Shown: positions 2,210-10,895, numbered from the stretch's first letter. The stretch is DNA of 19,117 nt from an uncultured Spirochaetota bacterium (GCA_963745235.1 CAVUXE010000032.1:1-19117), one strand, 5' to 3'. Notes: generated by a model not told the origin, from the sequence alone. A program made the numbers and translations.

Positions 2210-2239
2210 TTGACGTAACGTAACGTTTCGTGATACTCT
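2210..2239 (+). promoter_or_regulatory. MerR-type promoter/operator
   Basis: TTGACG (2210-2215), 18-bp spacer, TG-a-TACTCT extended -10 (2231-2239). The spacer holds the perfect dyad AACGT-A-ACGTT (2217-2227), resembling TipA/Mta-type operators. Confidence 0.75.
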
Positions 2240-2248
2240 CCTCTCCTG

Positions 2249-2713
2249 ATGATGACCGTGACCCAGCTCGCGCGAGAGGCGCGCGTCTCCATACGCACGG
2301 TCCGCTTCTACGAGGAGAAGGGCATTGTGGGCGCCGCTGCGCGGACCCCGGGGGGGCAGAAGCGCTATGACCAAGCCGCACTACTCACGCTGGCGAAAGC
2401 GAGGCTTCTCAAGGAAGCTGGAATGAGCGTGGAGGAAATCCGGCGCACGTTGCAGGCCCTGTCCGAGCACCGGACCGAGCACAAGGCACGTCAGCAAGCT
2501 CACCTTCGGCTGCTCAGCACCGTCACCGAGAGGATCCAGGAGCGCAGGCGCGAACTGCAGGAAATGGAAGAAGCGCTGCATGAGGCGTTGAAGCAGAACG
2601 AGACGTGCGTGCCGTGTACGGCCGGCGATTGTGCCGGGTGCCGGGTACTGGACACCTGGACCCGTTTTGGAATCAAGCCTACGGGACAGGAGCTGCCTGA
2701 CCGGGGCGGATGA
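2249..2713 (+). CDS. MerR-family transcriptional regulator with C-terminal 4-Cys motif
   Basis: N-terminal MerR HTH (TVTQLAREARVSIRTVRFYEEKGIV...RTPGGQKRY), coiled coil, then CVPCTAGDCAGC. Confidence 0.9.
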   Translation: MMTVTQLAREARVSIRTVRFYEEKGIVGAAARTPGGQKRYDQAALLTLAKARLLKEAGMSVEEIRRTLQALSEHRTEHKARQQAHLRLLSTVTERIQERRRELQEMEEALHEALKQNETCVPCTAGDCAGCRVLDTWTRFGIKPTGQELPDRGG

Positions 2714-2731
2714 GGGATAGGAGGCGTTGGA

Positions 2732-3193
2732 ATGGGCAAGGTCTTGGTAATTTACCAGAGCTTCTCAGGAAGCACTCAGAAGATGGCGGAAGCCGTCGCC
2801 GCGGGCGCCAGAGAGGTCCGCGACGTCGAGGTAGTCTTGAAGAGGGTCTCGGAGGCGGGATCGGACGATCTGAGCTCTGCCTCCGCGGTCGCCTTCGGAG
2901 CCCCAAACACGTTCGGCGGCATGTCGGGCGCGCTTCGAGACTTCTTCGATCGGGCCTGGAGCGCGCACGAAGCCGTGGCGGGGAGACCCGCGGTCGCGTT
3001 CAGCTCGGAGAATGCCGATGTTACCTCGGCTCGGCAGGAGATCGAGAAGTTCTTCACGTTCTACAAGCTGAGAAAGCTGTCCGAAGGCGTGACGGCCGTT
3101 CAGTCGCCTGGACCAAAGGAGCTTGAAGCTTGCAAGGTTCTCGGTCGAGAGCTGGCGAAGGCGGCGCTCCACTACACAGGGCAGGCGCGCTAA
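2732..3193 (+). CDS. Flavodoxin-family protein (WrbA-like fold, short)
   Basis: 153 aa. KVLVIYQSFSGSTQKMAEAVA FMN phosphate loop and GAPNTFGGMS. SD AGGAGG. Confidence 0.9.
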   Translation: MGKVLVIYQSFSGSTQKMAEAVAAGAREVRDVEVVLKRVSEAGSDDLSSASAVAFGAPNTFGGMSGALRDFFDRAWSAHEAVAGRPAVAFSSENADVTSARQEIEKFFTFYKLRKLSEGVTAVQSPGPKELEACKVLGRELAKAALHYTGQAR

Positions 3194-3225
3194 GGGCACC
3201 GGCGACGGTTTCCAGGAGGTTTCCC

Positions 3226-5124
3226 ATGTTCCCGGTTCAGACAGCAATCAAGGCACTTCTATCAGCATTGCCCGAAAGGGCGGAGCCTTTTTCCGGCAGC
3301 GAATACCCGCTGCCGGTTCACGCCGCGTACCTGGCGGATGTGCCGTCGGACATGACCGCCCTGTCCGGAAGGCTGTCTGCTTTTTCCGGAACGGACGTCA
3401 AACCGCTTGTTGATCCGATTCTTATCTGTGCAGAGGCCATAGAGTCTGCCCAGCCAGACCGAGGAAAATACTTTATTCCGGACCGCAAAGTGCAGGATTA
3501 CGTTTTCATGGGCAGCAAATGGAGGGCGGGCTGGGCACTCGTGCTGGGTGGAAACGGTTCCGAGCAGCTCATCCAGGATCTGCAGGAGCGGGAGTTCATG
3601 GTTTTCACGGATCTGCCGGGGCTTCCCGACACGTGGGACATCGGCTCCCGGGAGACATCGCCCGTTTACTTCCTTCAGATGATGGTGCGCTTCGGCCTTA
3701 CCTGGGGCCGCATCAAGCCAGGGGACGATCACCAGCTTGGCCATTACCTGGAAAAGGACATGCCGGGCGTGGTAATTATCCGGAAAGACCTCACGCCGCT
3801 GAAGTACCTTGTCGCCCTGGGCCTCATGAAACTGGGCGCGCCCGCGCTCGTTCCTTCCACCTTTCCCTTTCCCTACGGCAACCGGGTCGTTGCGGACACG
3901 GATCGGGAAATCCTGGAGCGGATCAACGGGTTCGAGAACCTGCGTACCAAGAGGTACGGCGATGAGACTATCTCTCTTCCCGAGTACGCCAATACCGCCT
4001 ACGCGCACCAGGAGTTTCCGGTTGCAGGACGCCTGGGCGGACCCATCTCCTTTCTGTGCATGCGGCCGGCCGGAACGGAAGAGCGCGTTTCAAGAGACTT
4101 TCGCGGGCGGGAAGACTGCCATGACATCGGGATCCTGATCGAAGTGCGCGAAAAGGACTTCTCAATTGATATTTCCGCCACCATGGAACGCGCCGCCTAT
4201 CGTGCCCTGAACTTCGTGGACAACTGGCGCGCCCGGGACAGCACGGAGGGTTTTGTCATTGAGTGGGCGGACACCGCTCCCTTCAGCGTTGAAAAGGCGG
4301 AGGAGGCTCTGCGGGCCGGAATCCGGATGCAGTTTCCGGCGCTCGAAGACTTCGACATCTCGATAATCCGGGAGAAGGACCGCCTCGCAACTCTTGCTCC
4401 GGTTATTGCGCGCTTCAAACGGGAACGCACGCTCATCATCGATTCCATGACAGAGGAGAATACAGAACAATTCTGCGTCTGCACCGAATGCCGCCCCTTT
4501 TCGCTCGTCCATACCTGCATCATCACCCCGGACAGGACTCCCATGTGCGCGGCGCGAAGCTATTTTTCGGTCAAGGCCTCCGCGTACTTCGGGTCGGATC
4601 AGAAACCCTACAAGCGCCGCTCGGAAACGACCGTCCCCCTCCGGCATGTGTTCAAAAGGGGAAAGGTCATCGACCTGGCTCGCGGCGAATATGAGGGAGT
4701 GAACGAAGTCTACCGTGCCATGACCGCCGGTGCGCTCACCCGTGTCCGGCTTCATTCTCTGGACGAGGTGCCCCACACATCGTGCGGCTGTTTCCAGAAC
4801 CTCGCTTTCCGGATCAGGGGTCAGGGCGGCATCGGCATCATGAAGCGGGGAAGCTCCGCTGTCACTCCCGACGGCCGTACCTGGGAGATGCTCGCCAATT
4901 ACGCGGGGGGGAAGCAGAGCGACGGCATCATGGGTGTCTCCAACCAGTACATCGCTTCACCCAATTTTCTCCGGGGGGACGGCGGGCTGAAGAGCCTGGT
5001 CTGGGCCGATTCAGAAGTGTACAACTGGGTCAGGAGCCAGTTGCCGCCCAACCAGAGGGTCGCCACGGAGAATGTCAAAACCGTGGCGGAGCTGAAGGCT
5101 TTTCTTGTCAGCGTTGATACGTAG
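3226..5124 (+). CDS. acsB: Divergent acetyl-CoA synthase (CODH/ACS complex beta subunit, AcsB/CdhC-like)
   Basis: 632 aa from ATG 3226 (SD AGGAGG). CTECRPFSLVHTCIITPDRTPMC and PHTSCGCF carry the A-cluster ligands. Also TPDGRTW..LA...GGKQSDGIMG and FLRGDGGLKSLVW. N-terminal and middle domains are only weakly similar to canonical AcsB, so the gene symbol denotes homology, not proven function. Confidence 0.85.
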   Translation: MFPVQTAIKALLSALPERAEPFSGSEYPLPVHAAYLADVPSDMTALSGRLSAFSGTDVKPLVDPILICAEAIESAQPDRGKYFIPDRKVQDYVFMGSKWRAGWALVLGGNGSEQLIQDLQEREFMVFTDLPGLPDTWDIGSRETSPVYFLQMMVRFGLTWGRIKPGDDHQLGHYLEKDMPGVVIIRKDLTPLKYLVALGLMKLGAPALVPSTFPFPYGNRVVADTDREILERINGFENLRTKRYGDETISLPEYANTAYAHQEFPVAGRLGGPISFLCMRPAGTEERVSRDFRGREDCHDIGILIEVREKDFSIDISATMERAAYRALNFVDNWRARDSTEGFVIEWADTAPFSVEKAEEALRAGIRMQFPALEDFDISIIREKDRLATLAPVIARFKRERTLIIDSMTEENTEQFCVCTECRPFSLVHTCIITPDRTPMCAARSYFSVKASAYFGSDQKPYKRRSETTVPLRHVFKRGKVIDLARGEYEGVNEVYRAMTAGALTRVRLHSLDEVPHTSCGCFQNLAFRIRGQGGIGIMKRGSSAVTPDGRTWEMLANYAGGKQSDGIMGVSNQYIASPNFLRGDGGLKSLVWADSEVYNWVRSQLPPNQRVATENVKTVAELKAFLVSVDT

Positions 5125-5192: not shown

Positions 5193-7829
5193 ATGCCGGT
5201 GTCGATCCTGGCGACAAAAATCTATGTCCCCCTGCCTCGGCCGAAAGCAATCCTCCGCTCCCGCCTGACTGACCGCCTGGACGATGTCCTGCATCGGAAG
5301 CTGACTCTCGTCTCCGCGCCTGCAGGCTTCGGAAAGTCGACGTTGGTCAGTGAGTGGCTCGCCTCCCGCAAACAGCCGGCGGCATGGTTGTCGCTGGACA
5401 AAGAGGATGGCGACCGCATCCGTTTCCTGACCTATTTCGCTTCTGCAATACAAGCGGTTGCGGCGGCCATTGGATCAGACGTGGTGCGCGTGCTCCAGTC
5501 CCCGCAGCCCCCGTCAACGGAATCGGTTCTGGCACACCTGCTCAATGACATAGCCGCTGCCGCGCAGCCTTTGGTCTTTGTCCTTGACGACTACCACGTC
5601 ACTGAATCCCCGCCGGTCGACCAGGCCGTGACGTACCTGCTTGAGCACATGCCGCCGCACATGCACCTGATCATCGCCACCCGCGAGGATCCCCAGTTGC
5701 CTCTTGCCCGGTTGCGCGCCAGGGGCCAATTGGCCGAGCTCCGTGCCCTTGACCTGCGTTTTTCGCCAGTCGAAGCTTCTGAGTTCCTCAACGAGGTGAT
5801 GGGCCTTGGTCTCTCTCCGGGAGATGTCTCGGCGCTGGAAACCCGCACCGAAGGTTGGATCGCCGGCCTGCAACTGGCGGCCATTTCTGTGAAGGGACAT
5901 GAAGACGCGGCAGGCTTCATCAAGTCTTTCACGGGCAGCCACTCTTTTGTGACGGACTACCTTCTCCAAGAGGTCCTGCAACGGCAGCCCGAACACGTCC
6001 AGGCTTTCCTGCTGCGCACCTCGATCCTGGGCCGTCTGTGTGGTCCCCTTTGCGATGCCGTCCTGGGGGACCCCTCTGCTTCAGGACAACAGACCCTGGA
6101 ATACCTCGAGCGCGCCAACCTCTTCATCGTCCCCCTGGACAACGAACGTCGGTGGTACCGCTATCACCATCTCTTCGCGGAACTGCTGAGACAGCGACTG
6201 CAGCAGAGCACGGCCTTCTCAAGCGGGGATGCAGGGAATGGCTTGGCCGTCTACCACATCCGCGCCTCCGAGTGGTACGAGCACAACGGTCTTGAGCTCG
6301 AAGCCTTTCACCACGCGGCTGCGGCGCATGACCTGGAGCGAGCCGAGCGGCTGATCGACGGCGGCGGGATCCCCCTTCACTTTCGTGGCGCGGTGGCGGC
6401 CGTGCGAGACTGGCTGGCGTCGCTGCCGGCGGCCGTGCTGAGCTCACGGCCCTCGCTGTGGGCGACGTATGCCTCGACGTCGTTGATGATGGGCCAGACG
6501 ACCGGGGTGGAGGAAAAGCTGCAGGCCGCCGAATCAGCAATGCGGAACGCCGCTTCAGATGACAAGGCTCGAAACCTTGTCGGACGAATTGCCGCCGCAA
6601 GGGCCACGCTGGCCCTCACCCAGTACCGGGTGGAGGGCATCGTCGCCCAGTCGCGTCGCGCCTTGGAATACCTGCGCGCCGACGACCTTGCATTCCGCTT
6701 TGTCGCCATCTGGACGCTTGCGTTTGCCCATCTTCTCCAAGGGGACCGAGCCGCGGCGGGAAAAGCCTATGCCGAAGCCCTGTCGATCAGCCATTCGACA
6801 GGGGACGTCTTCTCCGCCCTGCTGGCCATGGGCGGCGTGGCGCTGGTACAGGAGCTGGAAAACCACCTGGCGCAGGCGGCGGAGACCAACAGGCAAGTCC
6901 TGGAGATGGTCGGGGACCTGCCGCTGCCGAACGCCAGCGAACCGCATCTTGGCCTGGCCCGCATACTCTATGAATGGAACGACCTGGATGCCGCCGAGCA
7001 GCACGCGCAGCAAAGCATCCAGCTGGCGCGACAGTATGATGCGGTCATCGACAGGTTCATCATCAGCGAGGTATTTCTTGCCCGCCTGAGGCTGGGCCGC
7101 GGAGATGTGACCGGCGCGGCCGCCATTTTGGCCCGGGCCGATCAATCTGCGCGCCAGCATGAGTTTGTGCATCGCATCCCTGAAATAGCTGCCGCGCAGG
7201 TGCTCGCGCTGCTTCGCCAGGGCAATCTGGCGGCAGCCGCCCGCCTGGCACAGATGCACAAGCTTCCCATGAGCCAGGCCCGCGTGCACCTGGCGCAGGG
7301 GAACCCGTCAGGAGCCCGGGAGGTGTTGAAGCCCTGGCGTCAACAGGTCGAGGCCAGAGGCTGGGTCGACGAACAGCTCAAGGTGCTGGTTCTGGAGTCG
7401 GTCGTTGTCCATGCCCTTGGTGAAAAGGACAAGGCCGTGAACCTGCTGGGTGACGCGCTGGCATTGGCACAGCCCGGCGGCTTTGTCCGTCTGTTTGTCG
7501 ACGAAGGCGCTCCAATGGCTCAACTGTTGTCCGACGCAGAGGCGCGCGGGATGATGCCGGACTATGCACGGCTTTTGCTGGCTGCCCTTGGAAAAGAGTC
7601 AGTGCCGCCATCAGCAAAGACCGCCCAACCGTTGATCGAGGCGTTGAGCCCACGCGAATTGGAAGTGTTGAAGCTCATTGCCCAGGGACTCTCGAACAAG
7701 GAAATAGGCGACCGACTTTTTGTCAGCTTGAGCACCGTGAAAGGGCATAACCTGAGAATCTTTGGCAAGCTCCAGGTTCAAAGGCGGACCGAAGCCCTGG
7801 CCCGCGCCCGGGAGCTGGGCCTCTTGTAG
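5193..7829 (+). CDS. MalT-like LuxR-family regulator (STAND ATPase, TPR sensor, LuxR HTH)
   Basis: 878 aa. ILATKIYVP N-terminus, Walker A APAGFGKST, Walker B VFVLDDYH, RTEGWIAGLQLA, YRYHHLFAE, C-terminal LSPRELEVLKLIAQGLSNKEIGDRLFVSLSTVK. Confidence 0.95.
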   Translation: MPVSILATKIYVPLPRPKAILRSRLTDRLDDVLHRKLTLVSAPAGFGKSTLVSEWLASRKQPAAWLSLDKEDGDRIRFLTYFASAIQAVAAAIGSDVVRVLQSPQPPSTESVLAHLLNDIAAAAQPLVFVLDDYHVTESPPVDQAVTYLLEHMPPHMHLIIATREDPQLPLARLRARGQLAELRALDLRFSPVEASEFLNEVMGLGLSPGDVSALETRTEGWIAGLQLAAISVKGHEDAAGFIKSFTGSHSFVTDYLLQEVLQRQPEHVQAFLLRTSILGRLCGPLCDAVLGDPSASGQQTLEYLERANLFIVPLDNERRWYRYHHLFAELLRQRLQQSTAFSSGDAGNGLAVYHIRASEWYEHNGLELEAFHHAAAAHDLERAERLIDGGGIPLHFRGAVAAVRDWLASLPAAVLSSRPSLWATYASTSLMMGQTTGVEEKLQAAESAMRNAASDDKARNLVGRIAAARATLALTQYRVEGIVAQSRRALEYLRADDLAFRFVAIWTLAFAHLLQGDRAAAGKAYAEALSISHSTGDVFSALLAMGGVALVQELENHLAQAAETNRQVLEMVGDLPLPNASEPHLGLARILYEWNDLDAAEQHAQQSIQLARQYDAVIDRFIISEVFLARLRLGRGDVTGAAAILARADQSARQHEFVHRIPEIAAAQVLALLRQGNLAAAARLAQMHKLPMSQARVHLAQGNPSGAREVLKPWRQQVEARGWVDEQLKVLVLESVVVHALGEKDKAVNLLGDALALAQPGGFVRLFVDEGAPMAQLLSDAEARGMMPDYARLLLAALGKESVPPSAKTAQPLIEALSPRELEVLKLIAQGLSNKEIGDRLFVSLSTVKGHNLRIFGKLQVQRRTEALARARELGLL

Positions 7830-7912: not shown

Positions 7913-8621
7913 ATGACTGACCGTTTTTCGGATCAATCCCCGCGAAGCACCGCACGGATCGCGGGGTTCCTGTATTTCATGTATATCGCTGCGTCGGTGG
8001 TTGCGGATCTGCTCGGTCATTTCGCGTTCGGAGATTCGGCGGCAATCATCTCCACGATCGCGGCCCATCCGGCGCTGTTCCGTGCTGGTCTCGTGATCGG
8101 TCTGCTCTCGTCTGCTTTCTTTCTCCTGGCGGCCTGGGCTCTGTACGTCCTGCTGAAGCCGGTCAACAAGAACCTCTCGCTGCTGTTCCTGCTGTTGAAT
8201 GCCGTGGGCGTGGCGATCCAGTCTCTCAGCATGCTGGGTCTGATTGCCCGGCCTGTTGCTGCAGAGCGGGACCGGCTACGGGAGCGCGTTTCCGGCGGAT
8301 CAATTGCGGGCGCAAGCGACGCTGTACATCGACCTGTACAAGAACGGGAATTTGATCGCCCAGGTTTTTTACGGCGTCTGGGTCCTCCCCCTTGGCTACC
8401 TGGTCTTCAGGTCGGGTTTCCTTCCTAGGTTCCTGGGAATCCTGTTGATGATCGATTGTCTTGCCATTCTGACGTGGTTCATTCAGTTCTTTCTGTTCCC
8501 GGCAAATCAGGCAATAGCCTACCCCTGCTGGGTGATCAGCGCCCTTGCCGAGTTTTCACTCACGTTGTGGCTTCTGATCATGGGGGTGAAGGATCAGAAA
8601 GCCACGACTCAACCCGCTTGA
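7913..8621 (+). pseudogene. DUF4386 membrane protein, frameshifted (+1) near 8247-8249
   Basis: The N-half (ARIAGFLYFM...LYVLLKPVNKNLSLL) and C-half (IAQVFYGVWVLPLGYLVFRSGFLPRFLGILL...AEFSLTLWLLIMG) are in different frames. Removing one C from GCCCGGC gives one 235-aa ORF colinear with the paralogue at 10191. Confidence 0.85.
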
Positions 8622-10102: not shown

Positions 10103-10154
10103 TTGACAAACTTACATTGTAAGTATAACTTACAGTATAAGCTTACAACGTATG
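10103..10154. promoter_or_regulatory. Divergent promoter with three TetR-type operators
   Basis: TTGACA (10103-10108), 17 bp, TAACTT (10126-10131). Dyads CTTACATTGTAAG (10111-10123, perfect), CTTACAGTATAAG (10129-10141) and CTTACAACGTATG (10142-10154). Confidence 0.8.
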
Positions 10155-10190
10155 TTGAAAGCTTGCAACCTGGGATTCAAGGAGAGACAT

Positions 10191-10895
10191 ATGAACGAAC
10201 AGAAGCATCTTGCGAGAATCGGAGGCGTCCTCTACCTGCTTATCGCTATCTTAGGCGGCTTTGCGGAAGGGTATATGGAACCCAAGATGTACGTTGCCGG
10301 CAACGCAGTGGCGACTGCTTTGAACGTTGTCACGAACTCCGCACTTGTCCGCATGGGTGTCGTCGCCGACCTGTTGGATGGAACGATCTTTATCTTCCTG
10401 GCAATGGTACTCTATGTCCTGCTGAAGCAGGTGCACAAAAGCGTCGCGCGGGCAATGCTGGTCCTCGTTGCCCTCGCGACCAGCATCACGTGCCTGGTTG
10501 CTGTCTTCGAGTTTGCGGGCTTGCGCGTAGCAACCGACAATACTTATGCAGCCGCCATGGGCACCGCTGGTTCGAATGCCCTCGTGCTGCTCTTGCTCGA
10601 CATGCAGCACTATGGATTGCTCGTCGCCCAGATCTTCTTCGGGCTGTGGCTGGCGCCACTGGGGTATCTGGCCTACAAATCAGGACTGTTCCCCAAGGCG
10701 CTGGGCGTTGCGCTCGTGGTCGGGTGCGTCTGCTACCTCGTTGACCTGTTCGCGGCTTTCCTGGTTCCCGGCTTTGGCGCAGCGATTCATGGCTACGTCA
10801 CCATCCCGTCAGCAATCGCGGAGCTCTGGATGGTAGGATACCTGCTTTTGATCGGCGTGAAGACGGCAAAGCCAAGCACCCCCGCTGCAGCGTGA
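10191..10895 (+). CDS. DUF4386 membrane protein
   Basis: 234 aa from ATG 10191 (SD AAGGAG). ARIGGVLYL, LYVLLKQV, IFFGLWLAPLGYLAYKSGLFPKALG, AELWMVGYLLLIG; multiple hydrophobic helices. Confidence 0.88.
   Translation: MNEQKHLARIGGVLYLLIAILGGFAEGYMEPKMYVAGNAVATALNVVTNSALVRMGVVADLLDGTIFIFLAMVLYVLLKQVHKSVARAMLVLVALATSITCLVAVFEFAGLRVATDNTYAAAMGTAGSNALVLLLLDMQHYGLLVAQIFFGLWLAPLGYLAYKSGLFPKALGVALVVGCVCYLVDLFAAFLVPGFGAAIHGYVTIPSAIAELWMVGYLLLIGVKTAKPSTPAAA

Follow-up and report, generated by a model that had tools for sequence, protein, structure and literature searches.

A divergent acetyl-CoA synthase paralog in a merR-flavodoxin operon of an uncultured Spirochaetota bacterium: a candidate A-cluster enzyme independent of carbon monoxide dehydrogenase

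The merR-flavodoxin-acsB locus

Here we analyze an operon-like gene cluster, merR-flavodoxin-acsB, located at positions 2210-5124 of a 19,117-nucleotide (nt) stretch of DNA from an uncultured Spirochaetota bacterium (GCA_963745235.1 CAVUXE010000032.1:1-19117). This stretch, referred to hereafter as the window, is an entire contig (G000:C32) of a 5.85-Mb host assembly in 104 contigs, rated at 85.7% completeness and 5.9% contamination. The cluster comprises a gene for a MerR-family regulator, a flavodoxin-like gene and a gene for a paralog of AcsB, the bacterial acetyl-CoA synthase (ACS), and the assignment of the three products to these families is confirmed by both Pfam and NCBIfam. The genes are co-oriented on the + strand, and a GGAGG-type ribosome-binding site is present in both of the gaps that separate them (18 nt, 2714-2731; 32 nt, 3194-3225). 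A single sigma-70-like promoter site begins at 2210, the position at which the original prediction, made from the sequence alone, had placed the start of a three-gene operon; the open reading frame (ORF) coordinates likewise agree with the orientation and spacing that it had proposed. The three genes thus make up an operon-like unit with its own dedicated operator, and its features are as follows.

2210..2239, + strand: promoter with MerR-type operator (consensus scan; the motif recurs in MerR-linked loci)
2249..2713, + strand: MerR-family regulator of 154 amino acids (aa) with a C-terminal C-x2-C-x5-C-x2-C motif (Pfam MerR_1)
2732..3193, + strand: flavodoxin-like flavin mononucleotide (FMN) protein, 153 aa (Pfam Flavodoxin_5, FMN_red, Flavodoxin_1)
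3226..5124, + strand: AcsB-like (AcsBL) three-domain acetyl-CoA synthase paralog, 632 aa (PF19436, AlphaFold model, Foldseek)
3502..3516, + strand: codons of the alcove residues V93, F94 and S97 (profile alignment to 1mjg_M)
3703..3753, + strand: codons W160 to E176, with the alcove Trp followed by the D167-D168-H169...H173...E176 motif (alignment, family counts)
4480..4791, + strand: A-cluster ligand region, with C419, C422, C431, C441, F425 and C520-G521-C522 (alignment to 1mjg_M)

The original prediction had also placed the acsB-like gene in a 19-kb stretch devoid of its usual Wood-Ljungdahl partners. No gene for carbon monoxide dehydrogenase (CODH), the corrinoid iron-sulfur protein (CFeSP), AcsE or canonical AcsB was found among the 19 ORFs scanned in the 19 kb, and tblastn with CooS, AcsV, AcsD and AcsE from a verified acs cluster returned zero matches on the window contig. 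The description therefore stands for CODH, CFeSP and AcsE; CooC/AcsF, which it also named, were not specifically searched for.

Fold and A-cluster ligands of the AcsB-like protein

The only Pfam match of the 632-aa AcsB-like protein (P0001) is PF19436, the C-terminal domain of the ACS/CODH beta subunit. P0001 falls below the cut-offs of both the NCBIfam AcsB model NF040764 (197.7 bits against 800) and TIGR00316 (177.4 bits against 355.95); for comparison, the canonical AcsB of a Brocadiaceae genome (G003) scores 982 bits on the same NCBIfam AcsB model. An AlphaFold2 model of P0001, built on an alignment of 64 family sequences from many phyla with a mean column identity of 45%, has a mean predicted local distance difference test (pLDDT) score of 93.2 and a predicted TM-score (pTM) of 0.89. 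The best Foldseek match of this model is 7nyp_A, a monomeric ACS in closed conformation (E 1.9e-39, TM-score 0.66 on query length, 20% identity, ~710 columns (708)), and the isolated N-terminal ACS domain 6yua_A is also matched, over 291 columns. The family profile aligns end to end with the Moorella thermoacetica ACS 1mjg_M (E 5e-80), and in this alignment C419, C422, C431, C441, C520, G521 and C522 of P0001 correspond to the ligand positions C506, C509, C518, C528, C595, G596 and C597. The first four cysteines, spaced as C-x2-C-x8-C-x9-C, are each present in 64/64 family rows, and the Cys-Gly-Cys residues are almost as well kept (C520 63/64, G521 58/64, C522 63/64). On this alignment and the predicted structure, P0001 is a complete three-domain ACS in architecture, with the full set of ligands for a Ni-Ni-[4Fe-4S] A-cluster. 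Searching the ESM Atlas with the paralog yielded only generic ACS clusters, with scores of at most 0.88, and fused forms of 1107 to 3160 aa were not found at an E value of 1e-30 or better, a negative that constitutes weak evidence.

A clade apart from AcsB and CdhC

A HMMER search of 1.84 billion cluster representatives identified 389 relatives at an E value of 0.001 or better. Rows for maximum likelihood trees (LG+G4, short search) were drawn from the best 150 of the 389 matches, where these span residues 330-590, and from named archaeal CdhC of public metagenome-assembled genomes (MAGs). The tree splits into a group of 32 rows that includes P0001 and a group of 46 rows that takes in all archaeal CdhC and the 700-750-aa bacterial AcsB, with a Shimodaira-Hasegawa-like approximate likelihood ratio test (SH-aLRT) value of 100 on both sides. 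The split stays intact (32 vs 53 rows, SH-aLRT 100) upon addition of one AcsB sequence passing the curated cut-off and of six canonical AcsB from the host's phylum, and P0001 therefore does not nest within canonical AcsB. This result upholds the divergence attributed to P0001 in the original prediction. It qualifies the accompanying idea of a repurposed A-cluster protein, as the tree reveals an old sister clade of all AcsB/CdhC and not an AcsB repurposed in recent times. By its sequence, the paralog is hence a member of an uncharacterised clade that is separate from every canonical AcsB and CdhC in the tree.

Besides the four [4Fe-4S] cysteines, 18 positions are kept at 85% or more in both clades. 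The Cys-Gly-Cys motif and the F512 equivalent fall below 85% across the wide 32-row clade, but are retained in the subfamily to which the window belongs. One subclade (P0037, P0049, P0053, P0054, P0099 and P0130) keeps the four [4Fe-4S] cysteines and has lost the Cys-Gly-Cys nickel site, and further members of the wider clade present Cys-Ser-Cys or Cys-Ala-Cys in its place.

The paralog is scarce in sampled genomes and widespread in metagenomes. Among 251 sampled genomes of the host's phylum it occurs in 1, with a full canonical AcsB match in 35 and a short fragment in one more; among 401 sampled genomes of a Planctomycetota-side phylum, for which three candidates were scored per genome, it occurs in 2, vs ~69 with canonical AcsB. 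In metagenomes, clustering at 90% identity gives 152 groups of members (E 1e-10 or better), most of them ~627 aa long, with labels of hypothetical protein or ACS beta subunit and with source labels that include Poribacteria, Planctomycetota, Bacillota, Nitrospirae, Anaerolineales and Coriobacteriia.

Wood-Ljungdahl partners in the host and its relatives

The claim that the acsB-like gene is an orphan was examined in the host genome and in other paralog-bearing genomes. Neither CooS, AcsC/AcsD nor a canonical AcsB was found in the host (85.7% complete) or in a public Spirochaetota MAG (G001), and to this extent the claim is corroborated. A search of the host genome with PF03598 (CdhC) gave zero matches, and tblastn with CooS, AcsB, AcsV, AcsD and AcsE from the verified cluster recovered nothing beyond the paralog itself, an activase of the RACo type on contig C15 and an AcsE-like gene on contig C9. 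Two sets of host matches were considered as candidate partners and rejected. The single Prismane match, which might have been taken for CooS, is the hybrid-cluster protein Hcp (781.9 bits). As for CFeSP, the two CdhD matches that pass the cut-off are HgcA, and a third, weak and sub-cut-off, lies in the AcsE-like Pterin_bind gene on C9.

Some of these host genes merit description in their own right. The AcsE-like pterin-binding methyltransferase gene sits beside an SHMT-like gene and FolD (C9:90277-93445 for the group), without CFeSP, and the RACo-type corrinoid reductive activase is located at C15:58738-60624 (C9 and C15 are covered by L168 and L169). The two HgcA genes (C97:18351-19406 and C49:12508-14544; L042, L043) score 401 and 382 bits against an NCBIfam cut-off of 275, and one of them encodes a 678-aa form with an additional N-terminal half of ~345 aa. 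A tie between the locus and mercury methylation was nonetheless rejected, since HgcA passes the cut-off in just 1 of the 5 other paralog-bearing genomes and the methyl donor of HgcAB is reported to be S-adenosylmethionine (PMC11588087).

The relatives bear on the same question. In G001 the locus is found at 95% nucleotide identity, within a contig of 622 kb, and no CooS, canonical AcsB, AcsC or AcsD was found in that genome. Three Brocadiaceae genomes (G002, G003 and G004) encode a paralog 40-46% identical to that of the window. Neither CooS nor canonical AcsB was found in G002; G003 and G004 possess both, with the paralog on a different contig, and the acs cluster of G003 was verified as CooS-AcsB-AcsV-AcsD-AcsE. 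The paralog is thus unlinked to CODH and CFeSP genes, and some genomes encode it in addition to a complete canonical acs cluster.

G001 also contains a second copy of the paralog (L006/L007), located 9.8 kb downstream and 97.7% identical over 2015 nt, with the duplicated sequence starting within the last 100 nt of the flavodoxin gene. This copy appears to be frameshifted near codon 355 (open frame of 301 aa vs 662). Both copies are bordered by short repeats (59 to 138 nt), and in G001 a 3.1-kb insert lies between the CCG gene and merR.

A remodelled gas alcove and family-specific motifs

A study on ACS describes a hydrophobic, conserved gas alcove formed by G145, I146, V149, F229 and F512, in which an F229A change is reported to abolish autotrophy and an engineered F229W change to increase the affinity for CO 80-fold (PMC11321310). 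In the profile alignment of P0001 to 1mjg_M, four of these five positions are changed (G145 to V93, I146 to F94, V149 to S97 and F229 to W160) and the F512 equivalent, F425, is alone retained. The substitutions are characteristic of the family, with V in 57/64, F in 58/64, S in 51/64 and W in 54/64 rows (Y in 9/64), and F in 62/64 at the F425 position; in 19 canonical rows, the first position is G in 16, the second L/I/V in 15 and the fourth F in 13. An independent MAFFT alignment concurs for 4/5 alcove positions, the mapping of V149 shifting with the method. Three of the replacements (V93, F94 and W160) are bulkier than their canonical counterparts. With three bulkier walls, one of which is the affinity-raising Phe-to-Trp change, the pocket would be closed and thereby suited to an enzyme that has no CODH tunnel; free CO may hence be bound with high affinity at the proximal nickel within this alcove.

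Two further features set the family apart. W103 is invariant (64/64 family rows) and is not found in canonical ACS. A helix-face motif following the alcove Trp, made up of D167, D168, H169, H173 and E176 (HxxxHxxE), is near-invariant at its last three residues (63/64, 62/64 and 61/64, respectively); the canonical rows lack its His residues, and the motif was seen in the paralog family alone.

Conservation of the gene neighbourhood

Gene context was analyzed in 86 paralog loci (the window, 5 genomic and 80 metagenomic), 63 of them with at least 500 nt and 47 with at least 1000 nt of upstream sequence, by combining clustering of all ORFs, iterative hidden Markov model searches and tblastn, since gene calling by the longest ORF is misled by antisense frames in these GC-rich loci. 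One MerR orthologue group lies upstream of the paralog in 10/63 loci, always co-oriented and with at most the flavodoxin gene intervening. A flavodoxin-like group is present in 10/86 loci, immediately upstream and co-oriented in 7, at 771 nt in 1 and divergent in 2. When 63 near-complete paralogs are placed in a tree, those with a linked MerR gene are spread over at least 5 separate branches of a 46-row core group; none is in a deeper group of 15 rows. The original prediction would have fallen had no relative shared the three-gene order; the merR-(flavodoxin)-acsB order in fact recurs in divergent members of the family, though in a minority of loci.

Other contexts are also apparent. A pair of genes for a ThiF (E1-like) and a Prok-JAB (JAMM) protein, of a kind typical of sulfur-carrier protein systems, immediately precedes the paralog in 6 to 7 loci, across gaps of 2 to 18 nt; the loci of this subclade are L048, L049, L050, L059, L102, L111 and L117. 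A Pfam tally of 261 flanking ORFs from 82 loci (all but the window, the near-identical L006 and L044, and the G001 second-copy locus L007) is led by MerR, FMN_red/flavodoxin, Prok-JAB, ThiF and MFS_1. No CODH or CFeSP family figures among the 25 most frequent families in either half of the tally. MFS_1 is the commonest neighbour family in the more divergent half (L080-L123), with 7/122 flanking ORFs. A comparison of the 86 loci with the verified acs cluster (20 kb; ORFs of 150 aa or more) gave matches for AcsB and its antisense ORF alone, and these lie on the paralog gene itself.

The MerR regulator and its operator

The first gene of the unit encodes a member of the MerR family, with Pfam scores of 61.2 bits for MerR_1 (cut-off 21.6), 42.7 for MerR and 25.4 for MerR-DNA-bind, each at or above its cut-off. 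Its best NCBIfam match is SoxR, and because the score (57.6 bits) lies below the 116.9-bit cut-off the protein is not a SoxR equivalog. A C-terminal motif of four cysteines, C-x2-C-x(5-9)-C-x2-C, is invariant in the 10 MerR orthologues (x5 in nine, x9 in one), and the regulator would thus be a dedicated sensor with a Cys4 metal or Fe-S site.

The consensus scan places the -35 element (TTGACG) at 2210-2215 and the -10 element (GATACT) at 2232-2237, with a 16-nt spacer; an alternative -10 of the form TG-n-TACTCT, with TACTCT at 2234-2239, gives a spacer of 18 nt. The near-palindrome ACGTAACGTAACGT at 2213-2226 overlaps the -35 element and the spacer. MerR activators use a dyad operator within an over-long promoter spacer of 19-20 bp. 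The motif TTGACGTwACGTAACGT overlaps the -35 element upstream of the MerR gene in 9/10 MerR-linked loci and is degenerate in L058. In L061, L064 and L077 the DNA contains the perfect 7+7 palindrome ACGTTACGTAACGT, and in L051 and L118 the motif was deduced from protein sequence, namely the LTLRNV with which the called ORF opens, and not from DNA. The operator site is unique in the 5.85-Mb host genome (at most 2 mismatches for the 18-mer and 1 for the 14-mers), and the MerR protein is probably autoregulatory.

The flavodoxin-like protein and possible signs of expression

The product of the second gene is recognized by three Pfam models (Flavodoxin_5, 33.5 bits against a cut-off of 27; FMN_red, 28.6 against 24; Flavodoxin_1, 25.8 against 25) and does not reach the NCBIfam flavodoxin equivalog (50.2 vs 206 bits). 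A link between the paralog and flavins is also suggested by P0207, a protein of 801 aa (51% identical) in which a nitroreductase-type FMN domain (residues 3-170) is fused N-terminal to the paralog, although this fusion could be a gene-calling artefact, as it is a single cluster from one source.

DNA of the locus is present in metagenome runs of six studies, from soil, peat, freshwater sediment and other sources. In addition, metatranscriptomes of two other studies (peat, wetland; three runs) yield five short contigs that fall on merR, the flavodoxin gene and the paralog with 90-100% identity. No gene junction is bridged by at least 31 nt in these contigs, and most of the stretch is uncovered.

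Other features of the window

The remaining 16 of the 19 scanned ORFs comprise 12 with a family match and 4 without. By Pfam scan, they encode a CCG/4Fe-4S oxidoreductase, a MalT/LuxR regulator, two DUF4386 proteins, a glyoxalase, two TetR regulators, an SDR protein, an MFS transporter, a GIY-YIG/UVR protein, an Exo_endo_phos nuclease, a nucleotide cyclase and the four matchless products. The MalT/LuxR-type gene (5193-7829; 878 aa with AAA_16, TPR_MalT and GerE) begins 69 nt past the paralog, across a gap without a terminator-like site; it was considered as part of the module and rejected, as it is not downstream of the paralog in G001. The DUF4386 genes lie at 7913-8428 and 10152-10895, and the first of them (171 aa), which spans profile positions 1-100 of 210, may be truncated or frameshifted. 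An antisense ORF at 2765-3247 (-) faces the flavodoxin gene, and long antisense ORFs of this sort mislead gene calling based on the longest ORF. Similarly, the canonical cooS and acsB genes of the Brocadiaceae genome G003 are faced by antisense frames that are fully open, of 682 aa (L166:7694-9742 (-)) and 790 aa (L166:12073-14445 (-)).

Proposed mechanism and alternative explanations

These results support the original prediction of an A-cluster module that is orphan, divergent and under its own regulation, whereas the flavodoxin as its reductant, MerR as its metal or redox switch and the reactions suggested for it are putative. Taken together, they lead us to consider it very probable that the locus is a CODH-independent A-cluster enzyme module. 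We can envisage a mechanism for its function that, taken as a whole (a CODH-independent A-cluster enzyme, switched by MerR and devoted to CO scavenging or detoxification), we regard as evenly poised between being right and wrong. Having no CODH tunnel, the enzyme would draw its one-carbon substrate from solution. The replacement of G145, I146 and F229 by V93, F94 and W160 would create a pocket that tightly binds free CO at the proximal nickel, and the flavodoxin would supply the low-potential electron for activation from Ni(II) to Ni(I). CO would then be joined to CoA and to a methyl group from an unlinked corrinoid system to yield a thioester, or the reaction could run in reverse; the methyl side might be served in the host by the RACo activase, the AcsE-like methyltransferase and the HgcA-type corrinoid proteins. 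The net role would be CO scavenging or detoxification, and MerR, through its putative Cys4 metal or Fe-S site, would induce the operon upon a redox, metal or gas cue. The doubtful element of this scheme is the identity of the substrates as CO, methyl and CoA.

A number of observations weigh against the scheme. Nickel binding, CO binding and every substrate of the paralog are inferred. The HxxxHxxE motif and the invariant W103 may point to a chemistry other than acetyl-CoA synthesis. As many as 53 of the 63 loci with at least 500 nt of upstream sequence show no MerR, a corrinoid protein or methyltransferase gene is adjacent to the paralog in none of the 86 loci, and other members of the family have the ThiF and JAB pair ahead of them, an MFS transporter alongside or neighbours of unrelated kinds. 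At 16 to 18 nt, the promoter spacer falls short of the 19 to 20 nt typical of MerR activators. With a host assembly that is 85.7% complete and 5.9% contaminated, the absence of partner genes falls short of proof, and the contigs from RNA libraries could stem from contaminating DNA.

The main rival to this scheme retains an active A-cluster and assigns it a reaction other than the synthesis or cleavage of acetyl-CoA, such as the (de)carbonylation of another thioester or alkyl donor or some form of C-S chemistry, with HxxxHxxE as a second catalytic or metal site. We deem it unlikely, but it accounts for several traits of the family: H169, H173, E176 and W103 are near-invariant to invariant and not found in canonical ACS, the alcove has been rebuilt, corrinoid or methyltransferase neighbours are seen in 0/86 loci, the ThiF and JAB pair stands directly upstream in 6 to 7 of them, and the scores are far under the AcsB/CdhC equivalog cut-offs. 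Against this, the paralog has in common with the canonical clade 18 extra positions and the whole three-domain fold, which suggests the same core organometallic chemistry, and an alternative substrate is indicated by no conserved neighbour. The protein might also be non-catalytic, either a sensor or storage protein for CO, redox state or metals or a decaying relic. A Trp-lined alcove would favor very tight CO binding, to judge from the F229W report (PMC11321310); moreover, the Cys-Gly-Cys motif is lost in P0037, P0049, P0053, P0054, P0099 and P0130, and the second copy in G001 is frameshifted. However, the window's subfamily keeps all ligands across 64 sequences with a mean column identity of 45%, and the conservation of ligands over many phyla argues for purifying selection on the active site. 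P0001 carries no DNA-binding or signalling domain in a Pfam scan, the operon already has a dedicated regulator, and a non-catalytic role is disfavoured as improbable.

At the opposite end, the gene could encode an ordinary Wood-Ljungdahl ACS whose CODH and CFeSP genes reside on contigs missing from the assembly. An incomplete host genome (85.7%), the full A-cluster ligand set on an ACS fold and the AcsE-like methyltransferase, FolD and RACo of the host are all compatible with this explanation, which is nevertheless highly improbable. G001, where the locus lies on a 622-kb contig, is likewise without CooS and canonical AcsB; G003 and G004 carry the canonical cluster and the paralog separately; and the split with SH-aLRT of 100, together with a score of 197.7 vs 800 bits, sets the protein apart from the enzymes of that pathway.

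Relation to known systems

The CODH-independent enzyme that we favor shares with the bacterial AcsB of M. thermoacetica (1MJG/1OAO) and Carboxydothermus hydrogenoformans (1RU3/7NYP) the A1-A2-A3 fold, the A-cluster ligands and the F512 equivalent. To judge from the titles of the PDB entries, the C. hydrogenoformans ACS likewise exists as a monomer without bound CODH. The paralog departs from bacterial AcsB in being only ~20% identical and 70 to 100 aa shorter, across a fully supported split, in its V/F/W alcove changes, HxxxHxxE motif and W103, and in the lack of CODH, CFeSP and AcsE genes nearby. Archaeal CdhC, the beta subunit of the acetyl-CoA decarbonylase/synthase complex (Methanosarcina thermophila, 9C0S), is the best PDB sequence match over A2 and A3 (E 7.4e-37 with a single sequence, 1.4e-85 with the profile), and a His at the 510 position is common to the archaeal rows and the paralog. 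CdhC, however, resides in cdh clusters and in the canonical clade, whereas the paralog is in neither, and it lacks the N-terminal A1/prismane domain that the paralog has (10.64898/2026.07.07.736967). The available part of that recent ACS phylogeny distinguishes AcsB, CdhC, prismane-fused CdhC and two clades without the prismane domain, all of them clustered with CODH, and describes no CODH-less sister clade (10.64898/2026.07.07.736967). Within the full-text literature, understood here as the main text of articles outside subscription, we found no description of the clade or of a merR-flavodoxin-acsB module.

Another relevant case is that of Dehalococcoides, in which an ACS works without CODH in an incomplete Wood-Ljungdahl pathway and reportedly cleaves acetyl-CoA to methyl and CO. 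The Dehalococcoides enzyme is a canonical AcsB encoded together with CFeSP genes, whereas the paralog has no linked CFeSP gene and belongs to a different clade. The regulator, in turn, resembles SoxR and the metal-sensing MerR proteins in having a winged helix-turn-helix followed by a coiled coil, and in a palindromic operator that overlaps the promoter. SoxR binds its [2Fe-2S] cluster where the window MerR has the C-terminal Cys cluster, but the SoxR motif is CX2CXCX5C and that of the window MerR C-x2-C-x5-C-x2-C, with a score below every equivalog cut-off. It also differs from SoxR and the metal-sensing proteins in being the first gene of the operon that it presumably controls, behind a promoter spacer of 16 to 18 nt.

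Implications

Few enzymes share with ACS an organometallic chemistry of Ni-methyl, Ni-CO and Ni-acetyl species, and ideas on the earliest carbon fixation give ACS a central place. To our knowledge, every ACS characterised so far is a member of the AcsB/CdhC clade and has CODH and a corrinoid protein as partners. Such partners were lost, or never acquired, in the deep sister clade, which has kept the A-cluster and would amount to a natural experiment on the A-cluster alone. The clade may also serve as an outgroup for rooting the ACS tree, the root of which is left open in the recent phylogeny (10.64898/2026.07.07.736967).

More broadly, we would tentatively venture, with confidence that stops slightly short of even, that anaerobes of soils, peat and sediments harbor a new class of stand-alone A-cluster enzyme, with neither CODH nor a dedicated corrinoid protein and with a Trp-lined gas pocket and a His-His-Glu site, which would capture sub-micromolar CO into a thioester or carry out a new organometallic C-C or C-S reaction under the control of an undescribed Cys4 MerR sensor. 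The paralog could be a natural high-affinity CO-binding ACS, useful for gas biocatalysis, and the conserved pair of MerR and operator would offer a handle on the inducing signal. For specialists in nickel enzymes and early metabolism, its interest would lie in representing an unstudied branch of an ancient enzyme family.

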